Below are positions 22,573 to 41,001 of a DNA stretch of 64,000 nucleotides, in pieces (positions within the stretch are counted from its first letter, which is position 1; each line of letters begins with the position of its first letter). The notes beneath the pieces were generated by a model, which saw nothing but the letters and a program-made list of their open reading frames with translations, was not told where the DNA came from and did not search any database. The DNA is taken from positions 1-64,000 of the forward strand of contig PLXQ01000018.1 of the NCBI GenBank assembly GCA_003151475.1, read 5' to 3'. The DNA is from Acidimicrobiaceae bacterium (GTDB lineage: Bacteria > Actinomycetota > Acidimicrobiia > Acidimicrobiales > UBA8190). A program made the position numbers and the translations under genes.

Positions 22573-23970
22573 CTATCCGAGCTCCTTCGGTTCGCTCGGC
22601 TTGGGGTCCTTCTGGCCGTTGCTCGTGACCTGTGCCGTGGCCTCGACGGCCGGCAGCTTGGCGGCGTCGATGGACTTCCGCAGGGCCTCGTAGATGGACA
22701 GACCTTGGCTGACCACGCCCGCCGCCACCTGGTTCACCCCTTCGGTGCCGTTCAGGATGGTGAGGTTCGATCCGGCGATCCCCTTGGCCGCCTCCGCCAC
22801 CAGGGTGGGCAGGGCGTCGATGAGCTTGTTGGCGGCGATCAAGGCCTGGTTGCCGTCGGCCAGTGAAGCGGCCCGGACGTTGATGGCCTCGGCTTCGGCC
22901 GCCGCCACCGTGCGCTGGGCGTAGGCGTCACCGTCGGCTTCGTGCTTCTTGGCCGTGGCGTCGGCGGCGGCCCGGGTCTTTTCGGCGTCGGCCGAGGCCT
23001 CGGCGATCATGCGCTGGCGGTTGGCTTCGGCCTCGGTGTTGAACTTGACCGTGTCGCGGTTGGCTTCGGCCAGGGTCCGCAGGCGGAAAGCTTCGGCTTC
23101 TGTCTCGGCCTTCACCTTGTCCCTGTTTCCGTCGGCCAGGGTCCGCGTCTTGTAGGCCTCGGCGTCCGCTGGGCGGCGGACGTCTGACTCGAGGCGTTTG
23201 TCGGTGAGCTGGGCGGCGCGCTCGGCGAGATGGGTCTGCTGCTCGATGACCTGCTGGGAGGCCTCGGCTTCGGCCAGGGGACCGGCCTGAGCCGCCTTGG
23301 CCTTGGCCTGCTCGGTTTCGGCCGTGAAGCCGGACTGCTTGATGGCGGTGTCGCGGACGTACTCGGCCTTGAGCGCGGCGGCCTCCTGCTCGCGCTGGGT
23401 GGCCTCCTGGTCCGCCTTGGCGGCGGCGATACGGGCCTGGCTGGCCACGGCGGCGGCGTGGGGGGCGGCGATGTTGTTGATGTAGCCGGTGGAGTCCTCG
23501 ATCTCTTGGATCTGGAGAGAGTCGACCACGATGCCCAGCTTCTCCATCTCGCCGTGGCTGCCGTCTTTCACCTCCGAGGCCAGACGGTCTCGCTCGCGGA
23601 TGATCTCCTCGACGGTGAGGCTGCCGATGATGGAGCGGAGGTGGCCGGCGAAGATGCGGCCCACCAACTCCTCCATCTGATCTTGCTCGGCCAGGAAGCG
23701 ACGCGCCGCGTTGGCGATGGAGACGGTGTCGTCACCGACCTTGAAGGCAGCGATGGCGCGGATGTGGAGGCGGATGCCCTGGGTCGTGATGCAGTCCTCG
23801 GCGATCTCGGACTCCTGGAGTGAGAGCGAGAGGAAGCGCGCCTTCTGCTTGATGGGAAGCACGAAACAGCCGTGACCGGTGACGATCCGGAATTGGGTGT
23901 CCTCAGCCTTGCGTCTCGATCCGGAGATGAGAAGTGCCTCGTTCGGTGCCGGAACATGCCAGAAGAACAT
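22573..23970 (-). CDS. Flotillin-family SPFH/band-7 domain protein (YqiK/FloA-like)
   Basis: N-terminal membrane hairpin, SPFH domain, then a long Ala/Glu-rich coiled coil (EAEAFRLRTLAEANRD... repeats), typical of bacterial flotillins. Confidence 0.9.
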   Translation of the reverse strand: MFFWHVPAPNEALLISGSRRKAEDTQFRIVTGHGCFVLPIKQKARFLSLSLQESEIAEDCITTQGIRLHIRAIAAFKVGDDTVSIANAARRFLAEQDQMEELVGRIFAGHLRSIIGSLTVEEIIRERDRLASEVKDGSHGEMEKLGIVVDSLQIQEIEDSTGYINNIAAPHAAAVASQARIAAAKADQEATQREQEAAALKAEYVRDTAIKQSGFTAETEQAKAKAAQAGPLAEAEASQQVIEQQTHLAERAAQLTDKRLESDVRRPADAEAYKTRTLADGNRDKVKAETEAEAFRLRTLAEANRDTVKFNTEAEANRQRMIAEASADAEKTRAAADATAKKHEADGDAYAQRTVAAAEAEAINVRAASLADGNQALIAANKLIDALPTLVAEAAKGIAGSNLTILNGTEGVNQVAAGVVSQGLSIYEALRKSIDAAKLPAVEATAQVTSNGQKDPKPSEPKELG

Positions 23971-24380: not shown

Positions 24381-27158
24381 TCAGGCAGGATCGACGGTCA
24401 GGGTGAAGGCCTGGGTCACGATCTTCTTGGTGGTGCCCTTTGCGAATCTGGCCTCGATGGTGAGGGGGTAGGTACCGGCCTTCCTGGGCACGCCCGACAG
24501 GGTGGCCGTGCCGTCGCCGTTGTCCACGAAGCGGTGGTGCCGCGGCAGATCGCCCTTCTTGGTGATGGACAGGGCTCCGGTGGTCGTGATTGTGAAGGAG
24601 AAGCGTGTTCCAACGACGGCGGTGGCACCGTCAGCGCTCGTGATGGAGTCAGGAGCGGGTCCGACGGTAAAGCTCTGCCCGACCTGTGAAGCGGGGTCAT
24701 AGATCCCGCCGCCGGCCTGGTTGGCATTGATGACACAGGTCCCGGCGCCGATGAAGGTCACCGTCGACCCGGCCAGCGAACAGATCGAGACAGCCGAAGC
24801 ATCGATGCTCAGGCTGACGGGCAGACCCGATGAGGCGACGGCCGACGCCACGTACGGGGGCCCACCGACCGTGGCCGAGCTGGGAGCCGTCGAGCTGAAG
24901 GTGATGGTCTGCGCCGTGAGCACGGCGTCGACGGCACCGATATCGCACGGAGTGGGCCGGGCCACACCCCGTTGATCGGGGTTGGCACAGACCTCGGCGC
25001 TGGGGACAGAACCGATGGCCGGGCTTCCGGGCTCGAGAGCGATGGTCTCGGTGGGGCCGCCGTTGTTCTCGAGCCCTCTCGGGTCGAGACCGGCGGGAGA
25101 GTCGGGGAAATCGAGCAGGGCTTGGAGCTCGCAGGAGCCGTCGTCGACCAGATTCTCGCCGTGGTCGGAAATCGTCCCCGAGCAGTCTGTGCCGGAGACG
25201 GCGTTGGCCACGATGGTGGCCTGGAGGTTCAGCGTCCCGGCGATGTTCGTGATGTCCCCCCCGGTATTGCCGGACAGAGTGCTCGTGACCACCGTTGTGG
25301 TCGAGGAGCCGTCGTTCTCGAAACCCCCGCCGGCCGAGGCGGCGTTGCCGGCCAAAGTGCTCCCGCCGATGAGCATGGCGCCGCCGAAGGACTCGATCCC
25401 TCCGCCCCGGTTGGCGGCGCTGTTTCCCGACAGTGTGCTGCGGATCACCCAGAGGGTTCCGCCGCTAGCAATAGCGCCGCCATAGACGGTGGCGGTGTTG
25501 TCGGACAGGGTGCTGTTCTCGATCACCACGGTGCCCGGACTGGAGCCGTTCACGGCGCCGACGCTGAAGAGGGCGCCGCCCTGGTCGACGGCACTGTTGT
25601 CGGCGAGCACGCTGTCGGTCACCGTGGTGGTGGCGCCTGTCAGTGTGGCGATGGCGCCTCCCCCACCGTCGTTGGCCGCATTGTCCGTCATCGTGGTGTC
25701 GGTGACCGTCAAAGTGCCGGCGTTGGCGACTGCGCCTCCCGACGTCGTCGCCGTATTGCCCGACAGGGCGCTGGTGGTGATGGTGAGCGTGCCGTTGTTG
25801 AGCACGCCTCCGCCTTCATCGGCACTGCCATCCTCGATGGTGAGCCCCGATATCGAAGAGGTGACCCCCGATGCCACTACGAAGTCCTCGACGGCACCGC
25901 CACCGCTCACGGCCATGGCATCGGCTCCCGGACCGTCGATGGTCACGTTGGCAGTGATGTCGATGGGACTGAGCAGAGCGATCGTCGTACAGGGCGGGTC
26001 GAGAGCGAAGGCGATACCAACGGTGGAGACAGCGTTCGCCACCGCCTGGCGAAGCGAACCCGACCCGGAGTCGTTGCAGTTCGTCACCGTTTTCGTGGCC
26101 GTCTGGTACGCGCCGATGTCACAAGGAAGCGGGCGCTGGACGCCACGCTGGTCGGACGAGGAGCAGAGTTGCGGACTGTTGTCCGCCCCGATGGCCGCAC
26201 TTCCGGGTTCCAAGGCGATGGTCTGGGTCGGTCCTCCGTTGTTCTGGAGGCCGGACGGGTCGAGTCCGGAGGACGTGTGGGAGAGGTCGGTGTTGCTCGA
26301 AAAGGAGCACGTTCCGTCATCGTCAAGATTGTCGCCGTGGCTGGTGACACCCCCGGCACAGTCATGGCCCGTGGAGCTTTGAGCCATGACGGTACCGAAG
26401 AGGATGACATTGGCCGGCGAACTGTCGTTGTAGATGCCCCCCCCACTGCCGGTGCTGCTAGGTCCGCTGGCGACGTTTCCGGAGAAAGTGCTGTCGACGA
26501 CGCTCATGAAACCCGTACCGCCGTTGTAGATGCCGCCACCGAAGTCGGCGCTGTTGCCGGCGAAGGTGCTGGTGTCGATGGCCAGCTTTCCGTTGTTCGT
26601 GATTCCGGCGCCGGCACCGAGGGAGCTGTTGTTCGACAGATTGCTGTCGAACACACTTGTGGTGGCACCGTTCACTATGGCCCCGGAATTGTTGGTGGAA
26701 AGGGTACTGGCCGTGATCGTAAGGGTGCCGCTGTTGACAATGGCAGCGGCGTTATTGGCGTCTTCGATGGTGAGACCCGAGATGCCGACGGTGTCTCCGG
26801 TACCGATCTGAAAAATACCGGTGGCGTTGTGACCGCTCACCGCCAGGACGTTCGCACCCGGCCCCGTGATGGTGAGGTCGGTGGCAATAGTGATAGGTCC
26901 ACTCGTCAGCGTGATGGTCGAGCAGGACAGCGAAGAGTCAAAGGCAATGATGAAGCCGGACTCAGCACTGGCCACCGCGGCGCGGAGCGACCCGGAACCG
27001 GAATCCGCGCAGCTGGTGACTATCTCCGTTCCCGCCGCCGATACGGGCGCGGGGAGAGCGACAACGGAGAGGGCGGTGAAGGTGAGGATGCAAGCGGCGG
27101 CGGGGAACCGAAGCCACGACCTTGGATTGCGCTTCCGGACGTCGGCGCAAGTGCTCAT
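24381..27158 (-). CDS. Large secreted protein with two tandem CSLREA/parallel beta-helix/choice-of-anchor-Q modules, a Big-like domain and a C-terminal He_PIG-like domain
   Basis: Start trimmed to MSTCADVRKRNPRSWLRF..ALPAPVSA (signal peptide). Each module opens CADSGSGSLRAAVASA / CNDSGSGSLRQAVANA (CSLREA-type), runs through beta-helix GGGI/NN repeats and ends LQNNGGPTQTIALEPGSAAIGA...DQRGVQRPLPCDIGAYQ / LENNGGPTETIALEPGSPAIGS...DQRGVARPTPCDIGAVD (CoA-Q signature). The C-terminal FSFTITTTGALSI...DNGDGTATLSG..AGTYPLTIEA...QAFTLTV parallels the C-terminus of the Kelch protein at 8781..11219. Confidence 0.8.
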   Translation of the reverse strand: MSTCADVRKRNPRSWLRFPAAACILTFTALSVVALPAPVSAAGTEIVTSCADSGSGSLRAAVASAESGFIIAFDSSLSCSTITLTSGPITIATDLTITGPGANVLAVSGHNATGIFQIGTGDTVGISGLTIEDANNAAAIVNSGTLTITASTLSTNNSGAIVNGATTSVFDSNLSNNSSLGAGAGITNNGKLAIDTSTFAGNSADFGGGIYNGGTGFMSVVDSTFSGNVASGPSSTGSGGGIYNDSSPANVILFGTVMAQSSTGHDCAGGVTSHGDNLDDDGTCSFSSNTDLSHTSSGLDPSGLQNNGGPTQTIALEPGSAAIGADNSPQLCSSSDQRGVQRPLPCDIGAYQTATKTVTNCNDSGSGSLRQAVANAVSTVGIAFALDPPCTTIALLSPIDITANVTIDGPGADAMAVSGGGAVEDFVVASGVTSSISGLTIEDGSADEGGGVLNNGTLTITTSALSGNTATTSGGAVANAGTLTVTDTTMTDNAANDGGGGAIATLTGATTTVTDSVLADNSAVDQGGALFSVGAVNGSSPGTVVIENSTLSDNTATVYGGAIASGGTLWVIRSTLSGNSAANRGGGIESFGGAMLIGGSTLAGNAASAGGGFENDGSSTTTVVTSTLSGNTGGDITNIAGTLNLQATIVANAVSGTDCSGTISDHGENLVDDGSCELQALLDFPDSPAGLDPRGLENNGGPTETIALEPGSPAIGSVPSAEVCANPDQRGVARPTPCDIGAVDAVLTAQTITFSSTAPSSATVGGPPYVASAVASSGLPVSLSIDASAVSICSLAGSTVTFIGAGTCVINANQAGGGIYDPASQVGQSFTVGPAPDSITSADGATAVVGTRFSFTITTTGALSITKKGDLPRHHRFVDNGDGTATLSGVPRKAGTYPLTIEARFAKGTTKKIVTQAFTLTVDPA

Positions 27159-27228
27159 GGCCGTCCCCCCGGAATTCAGCAGTTTTCTCAATGGTAAGGG
27201 TTCACGGTGTTCCAGGACATCGTCGTAA

Positions 27229-28074
27229 TTGAGGAGGATGGGCGCCGCCCGCCAACCCCCTCCCTCCACCCACCCAATGTGGGCCCAATCGGGCGTCGAA
27301 CTCGATACCGATGGACGGCATAGCCTCGCGCCCGTGTCGGTACGTCGACGGGGATCATGGGCTTCCTTAGGGGCTGCTGGTGCTTACCGCGACCCCTGGT
27401 CGGTCTCCAGTGCACCAAACGCGTTGTCAGGAGTCTCAAGGATCGCTGCCCGTGTCAGCACGCCGACGTCGACGATCACGACGGAGCGGGCGGTCGCAGA
27501 GCCCGGTCCGTCAGGCTCGATCCGGATTCCGGTGGGACCGGTCACGACGGCCGCGCCCACTTTGGACTGCACGACCGGCGAACTGGTTTTGACCGTTCAC
27601 CCGGACCGGGCGAGCTACAACTGGGGTGACACGATGATCGTCACGCTGCACCTGGCGCTCACGTCCGGCCCGGCTTGTCGAATACCCGCCGACGCGTGCA
27701 CGCCTCAGGTGGTCGTCCATTTCTACGACCCCACCTTCGCCAACGGCACCGGCCTCCTCGGCCCCTTTACGGTGCCTTGTTCCTCGGACCCGCTTCTGGT
27801 CGCGTCCGGGTCGGGAGCCGCCGTCGGAGTGCCGGCACGGTTTGGCTCCAGCTCAGGGAACACCGACTGTCAGGACTCCCACGATGGCGTCGAACAGTGG
27901 GACGGACATCTCGGGTGGCAACTGGGCCCAGGCCACATTCTGAGCGCCGATCCGTTTTACGTCCGGGTCGTCACCCCCGCCCGGGCCTCGTCCACAACCA
28001 CCACCACATCGACGACCCCGCCAGCCACCACCACGTCGACGTCAACCCCACCAACGACGACATCGACGACTTAG
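27229..28074 (+). CDS. Hypothetical protein with Cys-containing domain and C-terminal Ser/Thr/Pro-rich linker ending at the stop (possibly truncated)
   Basis: ORF as given; no convincing signal peptide or start in frame. Ends ...ASSTTTTTSTTPPATTTSTSTPPTTTSTT*, a linker with no domain after it. Lies just before the outermost island boundary repeat (28371..28412). Confidence 0.3.
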   Translation: MRRMGAARQPPPSTHPMWAQSGVELDTDGRHSLAPVSVRRRGSWASLGAAGAYRDPWSVSSAPNALSGVSRIAARVSTPTSTITTERAVAEPGPSGSIRIPVGPVTTAAPTLDCTTGELVLTVHPDRASYNWGDTMIVTLHLALTSGPACRIPADACTPQVVVHFYDPTFANGTGLLGPFTVPCSSDPLLVASGSGAAVGVPARFGSSSGNTDCQDSHDGVEQWDGHLGWQLGPGHILSADPFYVRVVTPARASSTTTTTSTTPPATTTSTSTPPTTTSTT

Positions 28075-28370
28075 ACGCTCCCGAGGCACCTCCTTTCCTG
28101 AGAGAACGTCGCGATCCAGGAGAGACGGATGGGCGCCCCGTCCATGGAGCGCCCATCCGCCACGGCACAGGGTGCACGCAAGGAGACGTCGTTTAGGCGC
28201 CTCCAAGGTTCCTGACCGCCTCGTCGATGTACCCGCCGCCGACTTTGCGAAACACCGCCGCCGGGCGGGCTCACGCTCTGCGACGCTCGGGTTGCGACCG
28301 ACTGTCACCGCTCCGGGGAACTTACGAGTCGAGGGCCAGCCAGGCCAAGGATCTGACCGGCTAATTCGGA

Positions 28371-28412
28371 GTCGGGCTGGCGGGATTCGAACCGCGACCT
28401 CTTGACCCCCAG
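28371..28412 (-). repeat. Degenerate partial copy of the tRNA-Pro 3' half (outer att-like boundary)
   Basis: gtcgggctggcgggattcgaa-ccgcgacctcttgacccccag compared with the tRNA 3' segment tggtcgggctggcgggatttgaacccgcgacctcttgacccccag: one substitution and one deletion. Followed by gtatc, which is shared with copy 2. Confidence 0.7.
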
Positions 28413-29041
28413 GTATCGGCCAGCGAACGTTGTGCAATGGACCCGATGACCAGGTGGTCTTTGAGCGAACGCGGTGAAAGTTATGCGCGAGTGGAATCAC
28501 CGACGCGCCTGGGGCAACCCGATGAGAGCAATGCGGTTTTCTCGGGAGTCGGAGAGTCGAGCTACACGATGGCTTCGGGTGGCCACGGCGCCCGATGGGG
28601 ACCCCCACGGCGAGTGCCACGGCTGCTGGGCCCAGAACCCGCCGCGAATGGCCTCGCCGACGTTACCGTCTTGCCCACGTGCTCTTCACAGGCCGACCCG
28701 CCGAGGCTGGCACGGTTAATGAGACGCCAGCGCAAAATGGAGGGGGATGTCCCGTCGTTCGATTGCGAGATGTGACTGAGTCAACGCAAGGGCCTGGTAG
28801 ATGCTCCTGTTCTCATCAGCCGTCGTCAGTGCTCGTCGAATGGCAACCACTAAGGCACACCATCGGGACCTGACTCGGCGTACCATTTTCGTCCGACGGT
28901 GACACCTACGACGGAAGTGACGCCGCCCGGCTGCCGAGCCGCCAACCACCCCTCAACGTTCTCACGACGCTATGCCAGCCACCCGAGCTCGGGCATCGTC
29001 CTCGCCCTCCTCCCGACGGGAGGCGTTATGCTCGGCGGCGC

Positions 29042-29863
29042 ATGATTGATGACGATCTACCGCTCGGAGTCCGTGCTCGGTATCGACTAGCGCGAATGTT
29101 TGAGAACCGGGTGGCGGCTCATCTGCCAGACCGCCATCTCCGGATTCCTGGCCCCGACGGCAAGATCTATTTGAATCTTCGGGAGTCAGGAATGACTGTC
29201 AACCGTGCCTTTCGAGTCTATGAATATTGGATGATGTCCTTTGTGCGCTCGTTGCTCGAACCCGGGATGACGGCGATTGACGTCGGAGCGAATCAGGGCG
29301 ATTACACATTGCGGTTCGCCCACCTGGTAAAAGATGGCGGAAGGGTCCTTGCGTTCGAACCCGATCCCGAGAACTGCCACTGGTTACAAAAGAGCATTGA
29401 GGCCAACGACTACAGATGGGTTGAGGTCCACCAGATCGCTCTCTCAGAGCGAGAAGGATCCGCTACCTTCTATCCTGGCGGCAAGTCGGGGTGGGGATCG
29501 CTCAAACCTGGTAGCCGTAATGCAAAGAAGCGTCCGCCATTCGACGTCAGGACACGTCGGTTGGATGATGTGTTGTCTGATCTTGCGATCGGCAATGTCG
29601 ATCTCATCAAGGTGGATGTCGAGGGGAGCGAACTGGGTGTTCTCAAGGGGTGCCAGAGCCTTCTCTCCGATAGCAAGAACGTCACTCTGGTCTTGGATGT
29701 CGACGCTGAAACCGAAGATGATGAGCGCCAGGAAATCTACGAATTCCTGAATTCCACCTGTGGCCTGCAGGTTTGGAAGCTAGGCAAGACGATCGAGTCA
29801 TCGCGAAATCTGGAGGCCGCTGGCGCCGTCGTGGCTAGCAAGCGACCCAACATGTCACGCTGA
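29042..29863 (+). CDS. FkbM-family methyltransferase
   Basis: SAM-binding motif TAIDVGANQGDYTLRFA...GRVLAFEPDPEN and the C-terminal FkbM-domain pattern. Local GC is about 53% against about 70% for the flanks. Confidence 0.8.
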   Translation: MIDDDLPLGVRARYRLARMFENRVAAHLPDRHLRIPGPDGKIYLNLRESGMTVNRAFRVYEYWMMSFVRSLLEPGMTAIDVGANQGDYTLRFAHLVKDGGRVLAFEPDPENCHWLQKSIEANDYRWVEVHQIALSEREGSATFYPGGKSGWGSLKPGSRNAKKRPPFDVRTRRLDDVLSDLAIGNVDLIKVDVEGSELGVLKGCQSLLSDSKNVTLVLDVDAETEDDERQEIYEFLNSTCGLQVWKLGKTIESSRNLEAAGAVVASKRPNMSR

Positions 29864-29879
29864 ACGCTGCCAACTTCAG

Positions 29880-29925
29880 TGGTCGGGCTGGCGGGATTTG
29901 AACCCGCGACCTCTTGACCCCCAGG
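29880..29925 (-). repeat. Exact 46-bp copy of the tRNA-Pro 3' half (inner att-like repeat)
   Basis: tggtcgggctggcgggatttgaacccgcgacctcttgacccccag is identical to 30742..30786; it diverges after ccag (gtatc here, tcaag in the tRNA). Confidence 0.85.
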
Positions 29926-30081
29926 TATCTCGCGGTTAGCGGTGTGCGTCGGAGCCTTCTGGCCTGGGTCGGGACGTGCGAAACCCGTGAAGTTAAGCGC
30001 GGGTCGAACTGCGTCCTTGCGGCGGGACCCCTGAGTGACGGACCGGCACGTCCAGCGCAGCCCGTTGTCCATAATGGTTCG

Positions 30082-30579
30082 GTGGAACCAGACAGGACCG
30101 AAAAGACTCTCTGGGAGGCATCACGGTGGTCCTTCTTTGCGACCGTTTGGCCTGCCGCCCTGTTCGTGGTGGGTGCCGCTGCGGTCGTGGCCGGGCTGAC
30201 GGGTCTGTTGCGGTTGTGGGGGGAACCGCCGGGGTGGAACTACGCCATTCTCCTGGCCTGGGGTGTTGCGGCCATGGTCCTGGAGTATTGGCAGTTCAAC
30301 TTCATGGCGACACGCGTCGTTTCAGACCACGACGGGTCCTTCACGTTCATAGCGCGCAGGCGAACCTCACGTGTCGAACCCGGCGACGTCACCGGTGTTG
30401 AAGGGTGGTCGTCCTTTTCAGACTTCCTTCAAATTCTCCCACTCCGGGTGCGCACGGTTCGTGGTTCGATCTGGTTGGTTCGACAGGTAGGTGACCTCGG
30501 CCAACTACTCCAGGCATTGAAGGACAGCAACGTCAGTATGAATTTCCGCCCTCAGAGTCTCGAGTGGACCGCCCGATAG
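30082..30579 (+). CDS. Hypothetical membrane protein (two TM helices plus soluble C-terminal domain) inside the tRNA-proximal islet
   Basis: ORF 29914..30579 trimmed to GTG 30082 ahead of the first TM (WSFFATVWPAALFVVGAAAVVAGLTGLL; WNYAILLAWGVAAMVLEYW). No family recognised. Confidence 0.35.
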   Translation: MEPDRTEKTLWEASRWSFFATVWPAALFVVGAAAVVAGLTGLLRLWGEPPGWNYAILLAWGVAAMVLEYWQFNFMATRVVSDHDGSFTFIARRRTSRVEPGDVTGVEGWSSFSDFLQILPLRVRTVRGSIWLVRQVGDLGQLLQALKDSNVSMNFRPQSLEWTAR

Positions 30580-30741
30580 GACGGCTTGAATTCTGGCAAC
30601 GCGGTCGTGGGCGTTGAGTCATCTTCCGGTCGTGCCGATCCGTCTGACGGGAGTTGTCGGTCGTCGTGTCATGCCGAGTTAGGCGCACTTGTGCGCTGCT
30701 CCCCAGGGCGACGCGTCGAGTTTTCGACGTTTCCCCCGGAT

Positions 30742-30818
30742 GGTCGGGCTGGCGGGATTTGAACCCGCGACCTCTTGACCCCCAGTCAAGCACGCTAACC
30801 AAGCTGCGCCACAGCCCG
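30742..30818 (-). tRNA. tRNA-Pro (anticodon GGG)
   Basis: Reverse complement reads CGGGCTG-TG-GCGCAGCTTGGTTAGCGTG-CTTGA-CTGGGGG-TCAAG-AGGTC-GCGGGTTCAAATCCCGC-CAGCCCG-A-CCA. This gives a 7-bp acceptor stem, a GTTCAAATC T-loop, a 7-nt anticodon loop with GGG at positions 34-36, and an encoded CCA. Confidence 0.9.
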
Positions 30819-30875
30819 AATGTTGCAGTCCGGCAGTCTACCCACACCCACACGAGCGGTCCGGCGGCGACCCGA

Positions 30876-31073
30876 TCAGGCGTGATGGATGAGCCAGCCG
30901 ATCCCCTGGTAGGTCCGCCATCCGAGATAGATGACGGTGGCGCCGAGCAGGAACTTGAAGTGCCACGGCACCGGACGGCGCTCCTCCAGGGGCTCGCCGC
31001 ACGACGGACAGCCCCCGTCGTCGCTGATTTCGTCGTCCTCGACCATCTGATGACATGACTCACACCAGGCCAT
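30876..31073 (-). CDS. Small zinc-ribbon membrane protein (65 aa)
   Basis: Internal Met of ORF 30876..31481: MAWCESCHQMVEDDEISDDGGCPSCGEPLEE (CxxC...CxxC) followed by a TM segment FKFLLGATVIYLGW. Located 9 nt downstream of der. Confidence 0.5.
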   Translation of the reverse strand: MAWCESCHQMVEDDEISDDGGCPSCGEPLEERRPVPWHFKFLLGATVIYLGWRTYQGIGWLIHHA

Positions 31074-31081
31074 GAGCGACG

Positions 31082-32560
31082 TCAGCCCCGCAGCCGCACC
31101 CGGATCTTGATGGGTGTCGGTCCGAGCCCGAACTCCTCGCGCAGTTTGCGCTCCACGTAACGGAGGTAGGTGGCATTCAGCCGACGGGTGGCGAAGAGGG
31201 TGAACGTCGGCGGATCGATGGCCCCCTGCACGGCGTAACGGATCCGCGATCCGGGCGGAGGATGGGCCACCTGGATCGACCGCATGGCCCGGTTCAGCTC
31301 GCCGGTGGGGATCCGCCGGTGGTAGGCCTCGACGGCTTTGCGCAGCGCGGGCAGGATCCGGTGCACACCCATGCCCGTCCGGGCACTCACCTTCACCACC
31401 GGTGACTCGCCCAGGAAGGCGAGCCGGTCGTCCACGTCGGCCAGGATCATGGGACGATCCTCGGTCGCCACCAACTCCCACTTGTTCATGATCACCACCA
31501 CCGGACTGCCCGAGGCGCCGATCCGTTCGGCCAGACGCTGGTCCTGATGGGTGACGCCTTCGGTGGCGTCGATGACCAGAAGCACGACGTCGGCCAGGTC
31601 GAGAGCGGCCAGGGCCCGGACCATGGCGAAGTACTCGGTGCCGTCTTCGGTCCTCGACTTCCGTCGCATGCCGGCGGTGTCGACAAAGCGGATGGGACCG
31701 TCGGGGGTATCGAGCACGGTGTCGATGGCGTCACGGGTCGTTCCCGGCAGGTCGTGGACGATCGAGCGCTCCTCGCCGAGCAGCCGGTTGAAGAGCGTGG
31801 ACTTCCCTACGTTCGGCCGTCCCACCAGCGCCACCCGGGGGCAGTCGATGCCGTCGTCGACCTCGCCCAGAAGCGGTTCGTCACCGTCGTCGTCGCTGGC
31901 GGAGCGACGTCGCGTGGCCGCGCCGTCATGAGCAGCCCCCGCAACGGCATCTCCCACCGCCAACTCCGAGCCGTCGACGGTCTTGAACCGCTCCACGATC
32001 TCGTCGAGCAGGTCGCCGGTTCCTCGTCCGTGGAGCGCACTCACCATCCAGGGGTCGCCGAAGCCGAGCGAGACGAACTCCCAGGCGTCGGTCTCGCGTC
32101 GTTCGTTGTCGACCTTGTTGGCGATCAGCATCACGTCGCCCACCCGCCGCCGCAGCAGCCGGGCGATGTCCTCGTCCTCGGTGGTGATCCCCACGGTCAC
32201 GTCCACTACCTGGATCACGATGTCGGCACTGGCCACCGCCCGCTCGGCTTGCTCGGCCACCTTGGTATCGAGCTCGTCGCCGCCGCCCAACCAGCCACCG
32301 GTGTCCACCACCACGAAGGGGTGTCCATTCCACTCGGCGTCGAGCTCGAGCCGGTCCCGGGTCACCCCCGGTCGTTCTTCGACCACGGCCGCCCGTCGCC
32401 CCACGATCCGGTTCACGAGCGTCGACTTCCCCACGTTCGGTCGTCCGGCCACCACCACCACCGGCAACCGGGCCGTGGCGCCGGCGGCGGGCGCGCCGTG
32501 ACGCCCGGTCCGCACGGTCCGCACGGGGGCATTGTCCTCGACCGGCGTGAGGGGCGTCAT
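31082..32560 (-). CDS. der: Ribosome-associated GTPase Der (EngA), tandem GTPase domains
   Basis: Two G1 motifs (GRPNVGKSTLVNR; GRPNVGKSTLFNR) with the associated G3/G4 motifs and a KH-like C-terminus. Confidence 0.95.
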   Translation of the reverse strand: MTPLTPVEDNAPVRTVRTGRHGAPAAGATARLPVVVVAGRPNVGKSTLVNRIVGRRAAVVEERPGVTRDRLELDAEWNGHPFVVVDTGGWLGGGDELDTKVAEQAERAVASADIVIQVVDVTVGITTEDEDIARLLRRRVGDVMLIANKVDNERRETDAWEFVSLGFGDPWMVSALHGRGTGDLLDEIVERFKTVDGSELAVGDAVAGAAHDGAATRRRSASDDDGDEPLLGEVDDGIDCPRVALVGRPNVGKSTLFNRLLGEERSIVHDLPGTTRDAIDTVLDTPDGPIRFVDTAGMRRKSRTEDGTEYFAMVRALAALDLADVVLLVIDATEGVTHQDQRLAERIGASGSPVVVIMNKWELVATEDRPMILADVDDRLAFLGESPVVKVSARTGMGVHRILPALRKAVEAYHRRIPTGELNRAMRSIQVAHPPPGSRIRYAVQGAIDPPTFTLFATRRLNATYLRYVERKLREEFGLGPTPIKIRVRLRG

Positions 32561-34044: not shown

Positions 34045-35202
34045 GTGGCTGTCCAACGCGTCCTCCTCGCCTCCCCGAGGGGCTTCTGTGCCGGGGTGGA
34101 GAAGGCCATCAAGGCCCTGGCGTGGATGGTCCGGGTCTTCGAGCCGCCCGTCTACTGCTACCACGAGATCGTCCACAACCGTCACGTTGTCGAGCAGTTC
34201 CGCGCCCAGGGGGTCATCTTCGTCGACGACGTGGACGAGGTACCGGCCGGGGCGCCGCTCATGCTCTCGGCCCACGGATCGGCCCCCGAGGTGGTGGCCG
34301 ACGCCCGCCGCCACGACCGCATCGTCGTCGACGCCGTCTGCCCCCTCGTCACCAAGGTCCACCACGAACTCAAGGTCCGCGCCCGCAAGGGCTACACCGT
34401 CCTCTACGTCGGCCACGAGGGCCACGAGGAGGCGGTGGGCACCATGGCCGTCGCCCCTGCCTCGGTCCGCCTGGTCCAATCCGAGCAGGAGGTGGACGAC
34501 GCCCGGGTCGATCCCTCCTCCCCCGTGGCGCTTCTGGCCCAGACCACCCTGAGCCATGACGAGTGGTCGGGCATCATGGCTCGGGCCAAAGAGCGCTTCC
34601 CCGACCTCTGGATGCCGGGCCGTTCCGATCTCTGCTTCGCCACCACCAACCGTCAGGCGGCGCTGAAGGCCATCGCCGGGCGCGCCGATGTCGTCGTCGT
34701 CATCGGCTCGTTCAACTCGTCGAACACCCGGGCCCTCGAGAAAGTGGCCCGGGCCATGGGCTGTCCGCGGGTGCTCCGCATCAACTCGGCCGACGAACTG
34801 CCCGACGACCTCACGGGCACGGTGGCCGTCACCGCCGGCGCGTCCGCCCCCGACGAACTGGTCGAGGCCGTCGTCAAGCGCCTGGCCCCCATCGACGGCA
34901 TGGAGGAGATTCGCGTCACCGACGAGGACGAGTACTTCCCCCCTCCCCCCGAGATGCGCGACCTCCTTGTGGCCCTGGGCGGGGCCCTGGCCCTCGGTCT
35001 CGGCGCGCCGGCCCCGGGGTCAGGACCGGTACCCCGCGCCACTGACCCCACCGGTGACGCTGGCTCTGCCGATAACGCAGGCTCTGCCGATAACGCAGGC
35101 ACTGTCGATGACACGGTGAGCGATCCGGCCGACGACCTCGGGACGCTCTCCCGGGACCGTCACGTCTCGGCCGCCGACGTCCTCGCCCGTCTGGCGGGGT
35201 GA
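34045..35202 (+). CDS. ispH: 4-hydroxy-3-methylbut-2-enyl diphosphate reductase IspH/LytB, with an approximately 65-aa acidic low-complexity C-terminal extension
   Basis: Conserved IspH N-terminus MAVQRVLLASPRGFCAGVEKAI, Cys ligands and the HGSAPEV motif. The tail contains the tandem DAGSADNAGSADNAG. Confidence 0.95.
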   Translation: MAVQRVLLASPRGFCAGVEKAIKALAWMVRVFEPPVYCYHEIVHNRHVVEQFRAQGVIFVDDVDEVPAGAPLMLSAHGSAPEVVADARRHDRIVVDAVCPLVTKVHHELKVRARKGYTVLYVGHEGHEEAVGTMAVAPASVRLVQSEQEVDDARVDPSSPVALLAQTTLSHDEWSGIMARAKERFPDLWMPGRSDLCFATTNRQAALKAIAGRADVVVVIGSFNSSNTRALEKVARAMGCPRVLRINSADELPDDLTGTVAVTAGASAPDELVEAVVKRLAPIDGMEEIRVTDEDEYFPPPPEMRDLLVALGGALALGLGAPAPGSGPVPRATDPTGDAGSADNAGSADNAGTVDDTVSDPADDLGTLSRDRHVSAADVLARLAG

Positions 35203-36734
35203 GCACTGCCCCGGGACCCTCCCCGGTTACTCCCGCCGGCCCGTCGCCCGGTCTCCAGATCAGCAGCACCGCCGGCCGCTGGGTGGTGGCCGTCACCGTC
35301 CTCGGTTCGGCCATCGCCGCCATCGACTCCACCGTGGTGGGAATCGCCCTGCCCGCCATCGGACGCGACTTCTCCCTCTCGGTCTCGAGCCTGCAGTGGG
35401 TGGTGAGCGCCTATCTCCTGGCCCTCGCCGGCCTGCTTCTCGTCGGTGGCGCGCTCGGTGACCGCTTCGGCCGGCGCCGTATCTTCATCATCGGGGTGGT
35501 CTGCTTCGCCGTCACCTCCCTCGTCTGTGCCGTCGCCCCCAATGCCGCCGTCCTGATCGGCGGCCGCGCCCTGCAGGGGGTCGGCGCCGCGCTTCTCACA
35601 CCGGGATCGCTGGCCATCTTGCGGGCCTCGTTCGCCCCCGACGACCAGGGCCGGGCCGTGGGGGCCTGGTCGGGCCTGGGCGGGGTGGCCACGGCCATTG
35701 GTCCGTTCCTCGGAGGATTTCTCATCAGCGCCGTCTCCTGGCGCTTCATCTTCGTCATCAACCTCCCCATCGCCGTCCTCGTCGTCGTCATGGCCGCCCG
35801 CCATGTGCCGGAGACGACAGACCCCGAGGCCTCGGGACGTGTCGACATCCCCGGTGCCGTCCTCGTATCGGGCGGTCTCGTCGGCCTCACCGCCGGCATC
35901 ATCGAGGCGCCGAGCCACGGCTGGGGATCGGCCCCGGTGCTGGGGGCGCTCGTGGGGGGTGTCTGTTTCATCGCCGCCTTCCTGCTCCTCGAGGGTCGGA
36001 CCCGCCATCCCCTTCTGCCGCTCTCCATTTTCCGCTCCGCACAGTTCAGCGCCACCAACGTCGTCACCTTTCTCGTCTACGCCGCGCTCGGCGGGGCGCT
36101 GTTCCTGCTCCCCATCGAACTGGAGCAGGTCTCGCTCTACTCCCCCCTCGAAGCCGGAACATCGTTTTTGCCCCTCACGGCGATGATGCTGGCCTTCTCG
36201 GCGCGTTCGGGGGCGCTCGCCACCCGCATCGGTCCCCGGCTGCAGATGACCGTCGGTCCCCTCCTCGTCGGCGCCGGCATGGTCCTGTTCCGCCTGGTGG
36301 GAGCGGAGGGCAACTACCTGACCGAAGTCCTGCCCGGCATTGTCGTCCTGGGCGCCGGACTGGCTCTCACGGTGGCGCCGCTCACCACCACGGCCATGAG
36401 CTCGGTGGGGCCCGACCACGCCGGCATCGCCTCGGCCGTCAACAACGACGTGGCCCGCGCCGGCAGCCTGGTGGCCGTGGCCGTCCTCCCCGTGGTGGCC
36501 GGGATCACCGGGGCCAGCTACCTGCACCCCCTGGTCTTCTCGGCCGGCTTCCGCACGGCGGTCACCGTGGCCGGGCTGGTGTCGGCCGTCGGCGGACTGC
36601 TCTCGGGCGCCCTGATCAGAAATCCCCCTCCCGCCCCCGCCTCGGAGCCGAGGGCGCCGGGCACGGCCGCCACCTACTGTGCCCTCGAGGCCCCACCCCT
36701 GGCGGCGGCGTCGTCCGGCACGACGCGGGCCTGA
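35199..36734 (+). CDS. MFS transporter, DHA2 (EmrB/QacA) drug:H+ antiporter family, 14 TM
   Basis: Motif GRDFSLSVSSLQWVVSAYLLALAGLLLVGGALGDRFGRRR (MFS motifs A/C). GTGA 4-nt overlap with ispH. Confidence 0.9.
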   Translation: MSTAPGPSPVTPAGPSPGLQISSTAGRWVVAVTVLGSAIAAIDSTVVGIALPAIGRDFSLSVSSLQWVVSAYLLALAGLLLVGGALGDRFGRRRIFIIGVVCFAVTSLVCAVAPNAAVLIGGRALQGVGAALLTPGSLAILRASFAPDDQGRAVGAWSGLGGVATAIGPFLGGFLISAVSWRFIFVINLPIAVLVVVMAARHVPETTDPEASGRVDIPGAVLVSGGLVGLTAGIIEAPSHGWGSAPVLGALVGGVCFIAAFLLLEGRTRHPLLPLSIFRSAQFSATNVVTFLVYAALGGALFLLPIELEQVSLYSPLEAGTSFLPLTAMMLAFSARSGALATRIGPRLQMTVGPLLVGAGMVLFRLVGAEGNYLTEVLPGIVVLGAGLALTVAPLTTTAMSSVGPDHAGIASAVNNDVARAGSLVAVAVLPVVAGITGASYLHPLVFSAGFRTAVTVAGLVSAVGGLLSGALIRNPPPAPASEPRAPGTAATYCALEAPPLAAASSGTTRA

Positions 36735-38157: not shown

Positions 38158-41001
38158 GTGGACGTTGGCCGGCGAAGACAGGCAGTACGGCGCGCCCCGG
38201 CGCCGCCCGCAGTGAGGCGCGCCCTGGCGCGGCCAGCGGCGCCACTGGCCGCCGTCTTCGCCGCCATCTCGGCCGCCATCTTCGGGCTCCCGGCTGCCTT
38301 CGGCGCCACCTGGCTGGTGGGCGACAACCTCATCCAGAATTTCCCTCTCCGGCTGCTCGTGGGGACCGATCTGCGCCACGGACATCTGCCGTTGTGGGAC
38401 CCCTATCTGTGGAGCGGCTCTCCCCTGCTGGCCGGCTTCAACGCCGGGGCCGCCTATCCCACCACCGTCCTCTTCGCCTTCTTACCCGGGGCTCTCGCCT
38501 GGGTGCTCAACGAGATGGCGGTGGAGGTGGTGGCCGCGCTCGGGGTGGTGGCGCTGCTGCGGGTGCTCGGGCGTTCCTGGCTGGCGTCGGGGCTGGCCGC
38601 CGGGGCCTTCGCCTTCGGCGGCTTCATGACGGCCCAGAGCGTGCACCTCGATCTGGTCCAGGCGGCGGCCTGGCTCCCGTGGGCCTTCGTGGCCCTCGAC
38701 CGCCTGGCCCATCGACCCGACGGCCGGCCGGCCGCCCCGTGGGTTGCTCTTCTCGGCGCCTCGCTCGGTCTCATGATGCTGTCGGGAGCGGTCGAGCCCA
38801 TCTTCGACGGCGGTATCGTCCTCGTCCTTTACGGCGTCTGGCTGGCGGTGCGCACTCCGGGCCGGCGGCGCCTGCACATCGCTATCGGGTCGGCGGCGGG
38901 CGTGGTCGTCGGCGTCGCGGTGGCGGGCGCCCAGCTCATACCGGGAGCGGCCTTCCAGGCCCAGTCGCAGCGGGCCATGCACAGCTTCACGTACTTCTCC
39001 TCCGGTTCCATGAACAAGTCGCTTACCATCCTCGGCCTCGATCCCCTGGTGCTCGGCGGCGCCCACGCCTTTCCCCTGGGCTTCCTCGGCACCTTCAACC
39101 TGCCCGAGATCTCGAGCTACATCGGCATCCTCCCCGTCATGGGCCTCGTCGGCCTCCTGGCCGCCCGTCACCGCCGCGCCCCCGAGGCCGGTCAGTGGTG
39201 GATCTGGTACGGAGTGCTGATCGTGGGTCTCTTCCTGGCCTGGGGCGGATTCACACCGGTGGCCCACCTGATCTACGACATCCCGCTCTTCAACCGCCAA
39301 CGCCTCCTGAACCGCAACCTCCTCGAGGTGGACCTGGCTCTGGCCGTCATCTTCGCCACCTGGGTGGATCAGATGTTCAGACCGGCCCTCGGGGGGGCCC
39401 CGCACCTCGACACGGCGCCCGTGGGCGGGGCCACAGAGCGCCGGTGGACGTCGGACGTCGTCCTTCCTCTCATCCCGGTGGTGGCCGTCATCGGCCTGCA
39501 GATCACGTTGATCGCGGGCGGGCCCTGGTTCCCGCATCTGCTGCATGTGCCCGTCGCCGTGACGCGCTCGGGGCTGTGGCCTCTCATCGGTTTCCTCACC
39601 ATCCCCAGTGCCATCGCCGTCGGAGCCGGCGTCCTCGTCCTGCGGCGGTTCGCCCTCGGCCGCCGGCTCCCCGCGCTCCTGGTGGCGCTGGTGGTCATTG
39701 ACCTGGCCGTGTTCAACCTGGGCATCCAGTCCATCCCCGACCGCTCCGACGCCGTCTCCAGCGCCAGTCCCACCGCTGCTCGCCTGGCCGCGCTCGTGGC
39801 CGCCCAGGGCCAGGGCGCGGCCGGAGGCCGGCACCGGATCGGGATGTTCGACCCCGACCGCTTCCATCCCGTCGAGGCCAACCGGCTGGGCCAACCGGAC
39901 CTCACCATCTTGCGGTCCCTCGACAGCGTGCAGGGCTACGGCGCCGTCGTCGACGAGCACTACGACGCCGAGACGGGAACGCACCTGCAGCTGAACCTCA
40001 CCCCCGCCGCTCTCTCGGGCGACACCTTCGCCCGACTCGACCTCGGTCTGCTCGTGAGCGTGCCCGAGTACTTCATCCATCTGGTGAGCCGGCCACCGAA
40101 CTACGGCGGGAGCGTCCTGAACGGAGCGCCGCTGCTTCCTCCCGTCGGCCCCGATCCGTCGGCGCCCCCCGACCGGGCGCCTGCCGCTCCCACTCCCCCC
40201 GGTGACTACGTCTTCGTGTCGCCGCCGGCACCGACGGCCATGCTCAGCGCCGGCGATCCCCGGACCCAGTACTTCGGCACCGTCCTGTCGGTGACCGCCG
40301 TCACCGTGCCGCTGGCCTCGACCGCTGACACCGGCGACCTGCGGGTCGGCCTGCTCTCGCCCGACGGGGGCCGGACGACGTGGTTGGGCCCGGCCGTTTC
40401 CCTAGCCGGCAAGAGCGAGATCACGGTGGACAGCGCTCCGCAGGCGGCTAGCGGCATCATCCTGCTCTCGACGGCGGCGACGGCGGCGGTGGGTGACGCC
40501 GTGGTGCGCACCGCCGGCCAGGGGACCTACCGGGTCGACGGCTCGCTGCGCGACATCGTGACGGCGCCTCGGTGGCGCTACCTCGGCAACGACGGTGCCT
40601 TCAGCGTCTTCGCCCAACCCTCGGCGCGCGGCCGGGCCTGGGTGACCGGTGACCCGTCGGCCACGGCCCGGGTGGTGTCGGATTCACCGTGGGGCGACGA
40701 GATCATCCGGGTGTCGACGCACCACCAGGGCACCCTCGTCCGCTCCGAGCAGTTCGCCTCGGGCTGGGAGGCCACGATCACGGGGACCACGCCCGGCGCA
40801 GGGTCGTCTCGCAGTGCCGTGGTAAGGCGCAGCGACCTGATCCAGGCGGTGACCGTTCCCGCCGGGGTCCACCTGGTGCACTTCACCTACCGCCCGGCGC
40901 GGGCCTTTGAAGGCCTGGCCGTGAGCGCCGTGGGGGTGATCGTGGTGGGTGTGCTCGGTTTCTGGCCCCTCATCCGCAGGAGGCGGCGCCGGCCGGCTTA
41001 G
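38158..41001 (+). CDS. Large polytopic membrane protein, YfhO-like GT-C-fold glycosyltransferase family
   Basis: Multiple TM helices with the loop motif [25 protein letters not shown] resembling the YfhO family, plus a long C-terminal extracytoplasmic domain. Start set at GTG 38158, just after the GT2 stop; alternatives exist. Confidence 0.65.

Follow-up and report, generated by a model that had tools for sequence, protein, structure and literature searches.

Integrase-less islets stacked at a tRNA-Pro(GGG) gene of an uncultured Acidimicrobiales bacterium, and the conserved arm that they share

How did single-gene insertions, without an integrase of their own, come to be stacked in one proline tRNA gene of a peat-soil actinobacterium? 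Stacked insertions into tRNA genes are the textbook origin of genomic islands, and the islet structure itself is therefore unsurprising. The question raised by this locus is whether the islets are the remains of elements that once moved by themselves or members of a family that relies on the integrases of others. The whole stretch of DNA that was analysed, 64 kb in length, is referred to as the window.

The tRNA-Pro gene, its displaced copies and the two islets

The sole tRNA gene found by ARAGORN in the window is a tRNA-Pro(GGG) gene, which is intact (Rfam RF00005, 65 bits). It is followed by two displaced copies of its 3' half, both in direct orientation and on the same strand as the gene itself, and these copies delimit two islets. 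The features of the array are as follows.

30741..30818, minus strand: intact tRNA-Pro(GGG) gene with encoded CCA, the attachment site, with an attL role in the array (ARAGORN, Rfam)
30741..30785, minus strand: core copy 1, 45 nt from anticodon-loop C32 to the CCA, within the functional gene
29925..30740, no strand: islet B, 816 bp with 61.8% GC, between core copies 1 and 2 and closest to the tRNA gene
30082..30579, plus strand: cargo of islet B, a 165-aa ORF with a GTG start and two hydrophobic helices
29925..30005, minus strand: arm B, the ~80-nt element-side arm, which ends in GATAC and abuts core copy 2
29880..29924, minus strand: core copy 2, identical to the gene over 45 bp, serving islet B as an attR-like and islet A as an attL-like site
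28413..29879, no strand: islet A, 1467 bp, 59.0% GC, bounded by core copies 2 and 3
29042..29863, plus strand: cargo of islet A, an FkbM-family SAM-dependent methyltransferase of 273 aa, 55.4% GC
28413..28490, minus strand: arm A, the second member of the ~80-nt arm family
28371..28412, minus strand: core copy 3, degenerate, the outermost attR-like site
28300..28370, minus strand: flank beyond core copy 3, with CCGGTCAG (28353-28360) and GCGGTGACAG (28302-28311)

Core copy 2 is identical to the tRNA segment 30741-30785 at 45/45 positions, and a match of this kind was obtained in none of 100 dinucleotide-preserving shuffles. The bases that border the repeat differ on both sides (30786 t versus 29925 g, and 30740 a versus 29879 g), so that the repeat is 45 bp long and not 46 bp as given in the first-pass annotation, which was right as to its exactness. 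Core copy 3, described there as mutated, matches in 41/43 aligned columns, the T-loop having one substitution and the T-stem having lost 1 nt, and terminates in GACTCC rather than GACCA, without the CCA. When the 64 kb were scanned with a core profile, these three copies and none other scored above noise, and the repeats do not belong to a dispersed family. Beyond copy 3, the 8.4 kb that extend to the next syntenic gene (19428-19970) contained no additional, more degenerate att copies.

The enclosed DNA is of low GC content, 55.4-61.8% against 68.9% for the window, which is roughly what had been noticed at first reading. The FkbM gene and the 165-aa membrane ORF are the only supported genes in the two islets. 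The identity of the methyltransferase was confirmed by its FkbM domain (PF05050, E 2e-22). Only 16 bp separate the stop codon of this gene from core copy 2, so that a complete two-armed attP cannot be reconstructed for islet A. The nearest non-identical FkbM homologues share 53-55% identity, and one of these (P0009) is located in a glycosyl/sulfotransferase cluster. Three FkbM homologues (L132-L134) considered as further members of the islet family were rejected, as they lie outside arm-type islets.

The ORF of islet B has the same length, 165 aa, in public annotations of identical contigs; its two helices were judged by inspection of the sequence, and it has no Pfam match. Its family is rare, with 25 clusters of similar length at E ≤ 1e-3 among 1.84 billion representatives, so the earlier description as an orphan membrane protein holds for the membrane ORF but not for a strict orphan. 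As had been stated from the sequence, neither islet encodes an integrase or excisionase: there was no match to these families among the ORFs of either islet in Pfam, and tblastn with three integrase types found nothing in either. The sole tyrosine recombinase of the window is XerD-like (54251-55186), adjoins NUDIX and pyrG genes and is 23 kb away.

Of 75 distinct flanks, 23 have after the core a motif of the type seen beyond copy 3, against a background of 2.4%, and the motifs beyond copy 3 are similar to the sequence with which the P' arm begins in phage-like elements that carry an integrase (L113, L117, L120 and L082). This resemblance suggests that the flank may be the stub of a deleted element.

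The tRNA-Pro site in relatives

The array was compared with the loci of 80 relatives and with 24 metagenome contigs. In most of the 80 loci the tRNA-Pro gene lies downstream of der, and in the Acidimicrobiales this position is a hotspot for tyrosine-integrase insertion. In the window and in all relatives examined the displaced 3' copies begin exactly at C32, the first base of the anticodon loop, while 5'-half copies found in relatives end just past the same 7-nt loop; the crossover is therefore located within this loop. The anticodon loop (sublocation 'A') is used by 2083 of the 3919 islands in the Islander collection (PMC4383910).

Integrase-bearing elements at the tRNA-Pro site use the same attB and the same 45-bp repeat. 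One is a pSAM2-like element of 7.1 kb, with an integrase and RepSA (PF20199, E 5e-89), at the same site in L019; another is a phage-like element of 10.7 kb (L113/L114), with an integrase, HTH_17, AAA_25 and a terminase. Partial integrases adjoin the tRNA gene in three loci (L001, L060 and L026), and decaying elements are seen at the site: the integrase of L060 is frameshifted, and L019 has received an ISL3 insertion. In uncultured soil and peat Acidimicrobiales, elements of at least four kinds share the tRNA-Pro gene beside der as their landing site, namely a pSAM2-like AICE, phage-like elements, elements by which the 5' half of the tRNA is duplicated, and tiny integrase-less islets marked by an arm.

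Islets of the latter kind share arrays with integrase-bearing elements, and either of the two may come first. L082 has an arm-type copy and, after it, a P0122-type integrase; L113 has the phage-like element between the tRNA gene and an islet that in L090 adjoins this gene directly; and L103 has a copy behind which comes a P' arm containing TTGTCAAC repeats.

No relative has the same genes 3' of the tRNA gene, as judged by ORF-level tblastn, and the same three copies with conserved intervening genes were not found in any of the relatives. Contigs in which der is 98-99% identical diverge immediately after the tRNA gene (L130 and L131). One contig (L128) is without islet B, which may be due to the assembly having passed through the 45-bp repeat, possibly from one strain to another. 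Among the contigs with an identical FkbM protein, 16 were examined, and all comparable arrangements match the window. In a sister MAG (L123), copy 2 seemed to have lost 55 nt, a loss that would favour decay, but this proved to be an 'NN' scaffold gap.

The arm family

Both islets terminate in a conserved arm of ~80 nt that ends in GATAC and is joined to the tRNA copy. The GTATC that follows copies 2 and 3 (29925-29929 and 28413-28417), and whose presence in both had been noted at the outset, is real and constitutes the tip of this arm, which is found in the two islets and in ~20 others. By this arm, at least 20 islets can be recognised as a previously unnoticed family, the members of which differ entirely in their cargo, including FkbM, the two-helix ORF, pentapeptide proteins, DUF4331, GNAT+AHSA1, TIR+NB-ARC and a TIG-domain protein.

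The 20 non-redundant arms have a mean identity of 61%, with 29/83 columns at least 90% conserved, and arms A and B are 59% identical to each other. A profile built without the window sequences recovered arm B with an E value of 2.6e-12 and arm A with one of 2.1e-11. The conservation of GATAC in the metagenome set is by construction, as the search pattern required GATAC plus the core and the 24 contigs were thus chosen by their arm-core junction. The full arm was found only beside cores. Similarity between islets at the DNA level is limited to the arm, with none detectable in the adjoining DNA, and at their tRNA-proximal ends the members of the family show no conservation; a weak tblastn match of the region upstream of orfB to L002 was, at the DNA level, the arm alone. 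The arm shows no covariation, compensatory pairs being confined to the inherited T-stem, and it therefore resembles a site for protein binding more than an RNA.

Nine islets of the family are bounded at both ends. They measure 0.8-3.5 kb, and none of the nine (0/9) carries an integrase or even a fragment of one, whereas other elements at the tRNA-Pro site keep such fragments. Two further members (L092 and L093) lie on contigs that stop before the tRNA-proximal boundary, where a distal integrase is possible. Integrase queries against all loci gave no match inside arm-type islets. In searches by exact pattern, in which many of the contigs were short, a parent combining the arm with an integrase was not found in the 80 genome loci, in the 24 metagenome contigs or in IMG/VR; one IMG/VR scan gave no matches and the other six chance matches. 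The P arms of integrase-bearing L019, L060 and L113 bear no resemblance to the islet arm, and the integrases of the P0122 family occur in phage-like elements at tRNA-Pro(GGG) or tRNA-Pro(TGG) with unrelated P arms.

Origin of the stacked islets

The first-pass annotation had proposed two successive site-specific integrations by related elements, and the C32 junctions, the integrase-bearing neighbours, the lack of shared synteny and the common arm all support this. It had also taken the islets for degraded remnants, which is not shown, as a non-autonomous family resembling CIMEs fits at least equally well, given the nine bounded islets and the failure to find an integrase-bearing parent. The reading that we favour, with a little more than even confidence, is the tandem accretion of CIME-like, non-autonomous islets using an integrase in trans.

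According to this model, the host, an Acidimicrobiales genome of the Stordalen-Mire type, would have built its tandem array of two integrase-less islets from incoming circles, each with an attP in which the 80-nt arm (...GATAC) would lead into a tRNA copy reaching from C32 to the 3' end. A tyrosine recombinase would exchange strands within the 7-nt anticodon loop (CTGGGGG), restoring the tRNA gene and displacing the earlier 3' half outward. Islet A, with the FkbM methyltransferase, would have entered first and islet B, with the membrane ORF, second; we infer that islet B is the younger of the two because it lies nearest the tRNA gene. The recombinase would be supplied in trans by a co-resident element with the same attB, and the candidate helpers in relatives are the pSAM2-like AICE and the phage-like elements with an Arm-DNA-bind_4 integrase. 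As no such integrase is present in the 64-kb window, the islets would now be stranded passengers. We infer, rather than observe, both the dependence of the islets on a trans-acting integrase and any mobility that they might have at the present day. The signs of mobilization are circumstantial, namely the shared arrays with integrase-bearing elements in L082, L113 and L103 and the strain-level differences at the site. Against the use of an integrase in trans are the unlike P arms of the integrase-bearing elements found, among which there was no integrase able to act on the arm, the unconserved tRNA-proximal ends of the islets, the single arrangement of all comparable contigs with the identical FkbM protein and the degenerate state of core copy 3.

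Plain decay, in which two autonomous elements integrated in turn and were each deleted down to a cargo gene and the distal att arm, is the main alternative, although we consider it improbable on balance. The islets would then be dead, without any mobility, and the arm would be conserved through one widespread type of parent. The lack of an integrase or excisionase in either islet is what decay predicts, as are the substitution and deletion in copy 3, the absence of any P'-side sequence from islet A and the unconserved left ends of the family, and elements caught in decay are present at the site in relatives (the L060 frameshift and the L019 ISL3 insertion). Decay followed by accretion is moreover the accepted origin of CIMEs (PMC5704250), and AICE remnants have been documented (PMC2440964). 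Decay does not readily account for the lack of an arm-plus-integrase parent in the 80 loci, the 24 metagenome contigs (which were selected by their arm-core junction) and IMG/VR, nor for the nine bounded members without integrase fragments at a site where other elements retain them, nor for an arm so much better conserved than the islet DNA that adjoins it.

The copies might also have arisen without site-specific recombination, by local duplication or gene conversion, or as tRNA-Pro pseudogenes that have lost their 5' halves. Duplication could in principle produce direct repeats of one orientation, and copy 2 is identical to the gene, but each copy starts at C32, here and in dozens of other genomes, and what stands in place of its 5' half is a conserved arm that has no relation to the tRNA or to the tRNA promoter. 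Between the copies lies DNA that is unrelated, lower in GC and variable among genomes, and identical junctions are made by integrase-bearing elements; this explanation is close to refuted. Hardly more probable is that arm and core form a functional unit, either a small RNA whose 3' domain is tRNA-like or a regulator of the neighbouring cargo gene. The conservation of ~130 nt would fit such a unit, as would the TTGACC hexamer of the core, which is seen in the sequence to face the cargo genes in the window, and copy 2 has a weak tmRNA-like Rfam match in its T-arm (17 bits against a threshold of 47 bits). The lack of covariation in the arm argues against it, however, as do the varying orientation of the cargo relative to the arm among family members, the absence of promoter-like or terminator-like sites from 28000-31100 and the absence of any Rfam family at threshold.

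Among known systems, the islets of the favoured trans-integrase reading most readily invite comparison with the CIMEs of the ICESt1/ICESt3 family of Streptococcus thermophilus (reviewed in PMC5704250). Like these, they have att sites at both ends, here a core copy at each, and no genes for integration or transfer, they are arrayed with other elements, one behind another, at the 3' end of a single target gene, and CIMEs too are thought to use the integrase of a related element arriving at the same site. The islets differ in being far smaller (usually with one gene) and in having a single conserved arm, and their host is an uncultured Acidimicrobiales bacterium; moreover, CIMEs have been traced by sequence to parent ICEs, whereas no parent was found for the islets. 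AICEs of the pSAM2 type are likewise inserted by a tyrosine integrase into the 3' part of a tRNA gene of an actinobacterium, the target of the pSAM2 integration system being itself a tRNA-Pro gene, and their tandem insertion leaves an att copy of ~44 bp between elements; the integrase- and RepSA-bearing element of L019 occupies exactly the same tRNA site. The islets, in contrast, have no integrase, RepSA/RepAM or transfer gene, and their arm is unlike that of L019. A homologue of the L019 RepSA was not found in the window, with no match at E below 1.

The tRNA islands recognised by Islander also show an intact tDNA with displaced direct 3' fragments at the island ends and crossover in the anticodon loop, and 125 arrays of at least two islands have been recorded (PMC4383910). 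The regenerated tRNA, the direct fragment at the far end and the canonical crossover are all present here, but an integrase for each island is absent, and Islander would filter these islets out. Island finders that require an integrase overlook the arm-marked family. In the tycheposon arrays of Prochlorococcus, successive integrations at one tRNA gene similarly leave partial copies, newer elements pushing the older deeper into the island, and the cargo is ecological rather than concerned with mobility, with degenerate remnants alongside (bioRxiv 10.1101/2020.12.28.424599). Tycheposons differ in having their own recombinase and replication modules, absent from the islets, and in belonging to an unrelated phylum.

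If borrowed integrases do move the islets, they would provide a cheap route for the exchange of single genes in a poorly known phylum, and the arm profile would be a simple way to locate them. A more speculative possibility, which we regard as rather unlikely, is that the arm and core (~130 nt) are the only cis requirement of cassette-like single-gene islets without movement genes of their own, captured and stacked at tRNA-Pro(GGG) by unrelated resident integrases, phage-like or AICE. Were this so, the islets would form a tRNA-based counterpart of integron cassettes or of satellites, giving rise to variable gene arrays in soil Acidimicrobiia. They differ from integrons in that there is no IntI or attI, the window's one tyrosine recombinase being the distant XerD-like protein, in that the arm has no conserved structure of the attC hairpin type, and in that the orientation of the cargo is not uniform. 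The cargo of the islet family includes defence-like proteins (TIR+NB-ARC) as well as surface or secreted proteins.

Displaced 3′ halves of a tRNA-Pro(GGG) gene

The sole tRNA gene of the 64-kb window is a tRNA-Pro(GGG) with an Rfam score of 65 bits. The core consists of the gene's final 45 nt: it opens with C32, where the anticodon loop CTGGGGG begins, and closes with the encoded CCA. This segment is repeated exactly downstream as copy 2; no such match occurred in 100 dinucleotide-preserving shuffles. The first-pass annotation had reported an exact repeat of 46 bp; the exact copy stands, while its length is 45 bp since the flanking bases differ on both sides. Copy 3 agrees with the tRNA 3′ segment at 41 of 43 aligned columns: the T-loop carries one substitution, the T-stem lacks 1 nt, and the end reads GACTCC, compared with GACCA in the gene. 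A core profile scan of the whole 64 kb found exactly these three copies and no others.

Features of the tRNA-Pro(GGG) region in the window
30741–30818, minus strand: tRNA-Pro(GGG), including core copy 1
29925–30740: islet B, between copies 1 and 2
30082–30579: 165-aa ORF of islet B, with two hydrophobic helices
29925–30005: arm of islet B
29880–29924: core copy 2, an exact repeat of the last 45 nt of the tRNA gene
28413–29879: islet A, between copies 2 and 3
29042–29863: FkbM-family methyltransferase gene of islet A (PF05050, E 2e-22)
28413–28490: arm of islet A
28371–28412: core copy 3

The GC content is 68.9% for the window, 61.8% for islet B, 59.0% for islet A and 55.4% for the FkbM gene. 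The 165-aa membrane protein has no Pfam match and had been called an orphan; it is instead rare: among 1.84 billion representative proteins, 25 are distantly related to it and similar in length. Neither islet carries an integrase or excisionase, as had been noted from the sequence. The only tyrosine recombinase encoded in the window is a XerD-like protein of 311 aa (54251–55186, minus strand), beside a NUDIX hydrolase and CTP synthase (pyrG); it was rejected as a helper of the islets, being a housekeeping recombinase. Gene calls on identical public contigs place a 111-aa ORF (29737–30072, minus strand) and a 192-aa ORF (28042–28620, minus strand) across core copies 2 and 3 and the arms; neither has a family match and both are probably spurious translations of att sites.

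The tRNA gene neighbours der/EngA (31082–32560), which is followed by a small conserved ORF. A Der scan, limited to one genome per species, gave 80 loci, all from Acidimicrobiales or Acidimicrobiaceae MAGs, with the closest relatives at 82–85% identity; in most of them tRNA-Pro(GGG) lies downstream of der. On the upstream side of the tRNA, gene order is shared without a break with the closest relatives, whereas downstream the window has no gene in common with any relative, and the next syntenic gene, for a hexapeptide transferase (19428–19970), is 10.8 kb away. This gene directly follows der in 21 more distant relatives and lies 6.7 kb past the tRNA in the relative L021. The tRNA is therefore the start of a variable region.

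Further into this region are a 962-aa ORF (24381–27269, minus strand), which has an internal duplication of ~930 bp, many Gly/Asn/Thr-rich repeats and no Pfam match, and a 281-aa ORF (27229–28074, plus strand), in which three terminal 27-nt tandem repeats (27995–28075) encode a Thr/Pro-rich tail. No relative has a counterpart of either near der. AT skew is strongly negative (down to −0.48) at 22600–23600, coinciding with an SPFH/Band-7 gene (22573–23970), and at 35200–35800 and 38200–39000, in otherwise ordinary high-GC DNA.

A conserved arm adjoining the cores

The 'extra gtatc' of the first-pass annotation proved to be the tip of an arm of ~80 nt, which in the tRNA sense precedes copies 2 and 3. 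Among the relatives, L002 has the arm ahead of its first displaced copy and L036 ahead of its copy. Searching metagenomes for GATAC directly abutting the core's initial 17 nt gave 24 contigs, about 20 of which have the arm. The 20 non-redundant members average 61% identity in pairwise comparison; conservation reaches 90% or more in 29 of 83 columns, grouped in the blocks GAGCYGCKCTTAACTT, TTTCGCTC, ACCWGGTC, GCACAACGC and GATAC, the last being conserved by construction, as the search pattern prescribed its five bases. Both arms of the window are matched (E 2.6e-12 and 2.1e-11) by a profile from which they had been withheld, and the full arm was found only adjoining cores. The window's two arms are 59% identical, and islets A and B are thus different family members, not duplicates.

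Similarity between islets ends at the arm. The cargo is unrelated and comprises FkbM, the membrane ORF, pentapeptide proteins, pentapeptide plus Big_7, DUF4331, GNAT plus AHSA1, TIR plus NB-ARC, a TIG-domain protein and an unknown secreted protein, with an IS21-like insertion also present in the L093 islet. Nine islets are bounded at both ends (0.8–3.5 kb), and none of these contains an integrase or integrase fragment. The tRNA-proximal ends of the islets are not conserved, with one exception: in contig L085 the flank that follows the displaced copy matches the islet's left end.

Integrase-bearing elements at the same site

L002 (with two exact copies, like the window), L019, L036, L037 and L060 have extra 3′-half copies downstream of the tRNA, and L012 has an inverted one, the intact tRNA being absent from its locus. 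In every case the displaced 3′ copies start at C32. The element in L019 is AICE-like: genes for an ISL3 transposase, for a tyrosine integrase and for a RepSA of the pSAM2 type (PF20199, E 5e-89) lie within 7.1 kb. The integrase of L060 is frameshifted, and in the closest relative, L001, an integrase C-terminus directly follows the tRNA at the contig end. A phage-like element of 10.7 kb, which occupies the interval between tRNA-Pro(GGG) and a 45-nt copy in L113/L114, encodes a different type of integrase, P0122 (380 aa; Arm-DNA-bind_4 and Phage_integrase domains), together with HTH_17, AAA_25 and terminase genes.

Other relatives have copies of the 5′ half (nt 1–40), which terminate precisely after the anticodon loop and are found either next to an integrase or upstream of the intact gene.

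Examples of 5′-half copies
L031, 14825–14864: tRNA at 16985–17060
L044, 6495–6534: tRNA at 11449–11524; the copy has a promoter-like flank of its own
L049, 14770–14809: integrase at 15511–16647, minus strand

The same duplication is present in L016, L030, L051 and L056. These 5′-half duplicators are a second element class at tRNA-Pro(GGG), with an uncommon polarity, as just 159 of 3919 islands in Islander have a 5′ fragment. The only overlap between the 3′ and 5′ copies is the 7-nt anticodon loop, which places strand exchange there; an anticodon-centred sublocation is recorded for 2083 of the 3919 Islander islands (PMC4383910).

The ~379-aa integrases P0126, P0132 and P0139 (contigs L117–L121) have the domain make-up of P0122 and are 71–74% identical to an integrase fragment in L082. 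They adjoin tRNA-Pro(TGG), not GGG, with a 34-nt displaced copy 10.3 kb away in L121, which suggests that one integrase family is spread across two proline isoacceptors.

Arrays mix arm-type islets with integrase-bearing elements in either order. In L082 a P0122-type integrase comes after an arm-type copy. In L090 an islet directly abuts the tRNA; DNA identical to the left end of this islet is present in L113, separated from the tRNA by the phage-like element. The P′ arms of the P0122 family, compared in the L113, L117, L120, L082 and L103 flanks, open with (G)CAG(G/T)TCAG a few bases past the tRNA end, followed by TTGTCAAC repeats that are probably arm-type integrase sites; in L103 these repeats come after the copy, as in the L113 P′ arm. 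[quoted passage not shown] Past copy 3 of the window are CCGGTCAG (28353–28360) and one GCGGTGACAG (28302–28311), with no integrase; these short motifs may be what remains of an integrase-bearing element after its deletion.

Origin of the islets

Two site-specific tyrosine-recombinase integrations at the anticodon loop are very well supported, and the earlier reading of successive integrations into the tRNA gene holds with refinements. A crossover in the loop would have the incoming element supply a new tRNA 3′ half and displace the old one, so that islet A would have arrived before islet B and the degenerate, CCA-less copy 3 would be the oldest 3′ half. The structure matches the tandem accretion at tRNA genes known for AICEs, CIMEs (PMC5704250), Islander arrays (PMC4383910) and the tycheposon arrays of Prochlorococcus islands (bioRxiv 10.1101/2020.12.28.424599); in the AICEs, a 44-bp att site is common to AICESav3728 and AICESav3708, and tRNA-Pro is the target of the pSAM2 system (PMC2440964). 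The islets lack the integrase that Islander-type islands require and every AICE module, and they differ from integron cassettes in having no IntI, no folding attC and mixed cargo orientation. They fit the structural definition of a CIME, here as read from sequence. To these systems our analysis makes the modest addition of an arm-defined family and a multi-element hotspot.

On balance we favour a non-autonomous, CIME-like family that would depend on the integrase of another element at the same attB, and in which arm plus core would be the sole conserved part. Set against this are the lack of a known cognate integrase, the conservation of one arm only, the absence of any P′ side in islet A and the near-uniform arrangement across population contigs. 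Simple decay of autonomous elements, as proposed in the first-pass annotation, is the main rival and a real, if lesser, possibility. However, a parent with both arm and integrase was found in none of the 80 genome loci, 24 contigs or IMG/VR, nor, among four further integrases looked up, in the DNA of the three that could be scanned for the arm; integrase fragments are kept by none of the nine bounded members, although other elements at the site keep them, and the arm blocks are conserved beside DNA that shares nothing.

A functional RNA or regulatory module formed by arm and core is very unlikely: neither covariation in the arm alignment, apart from the inherited T-stem, nor a fitting Rfam family was found, so the arm looks like a putative protein-binding att arm rather than RNA. 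Duplication without site-specific recombination is likewise very unlikely.

Right after the tRNA, differences appear among contigs of the window's own or sister populations, in which der is 98–99% identical. In L130 (966–1147) and L131 (922–1097) the DNA past the tRNA is unlike anything in the window. L128 (1479–1965) joins the tRNA straight to islet A without islet B, and is given little weight because an assembly path through the 45-bp repeat is possible. Contigs L109, L111 and L112 stop inside copy 2. In L123 (GCA_003169915.1, PNAD01000075.1) an 'NN' scaffold gap at 4716–4740 in core copy 2 has lost ~40 nt, and in the public annotation this gap produces a false 498-aa ORF fusing the FkbM gene with the downstream membrane ORF.
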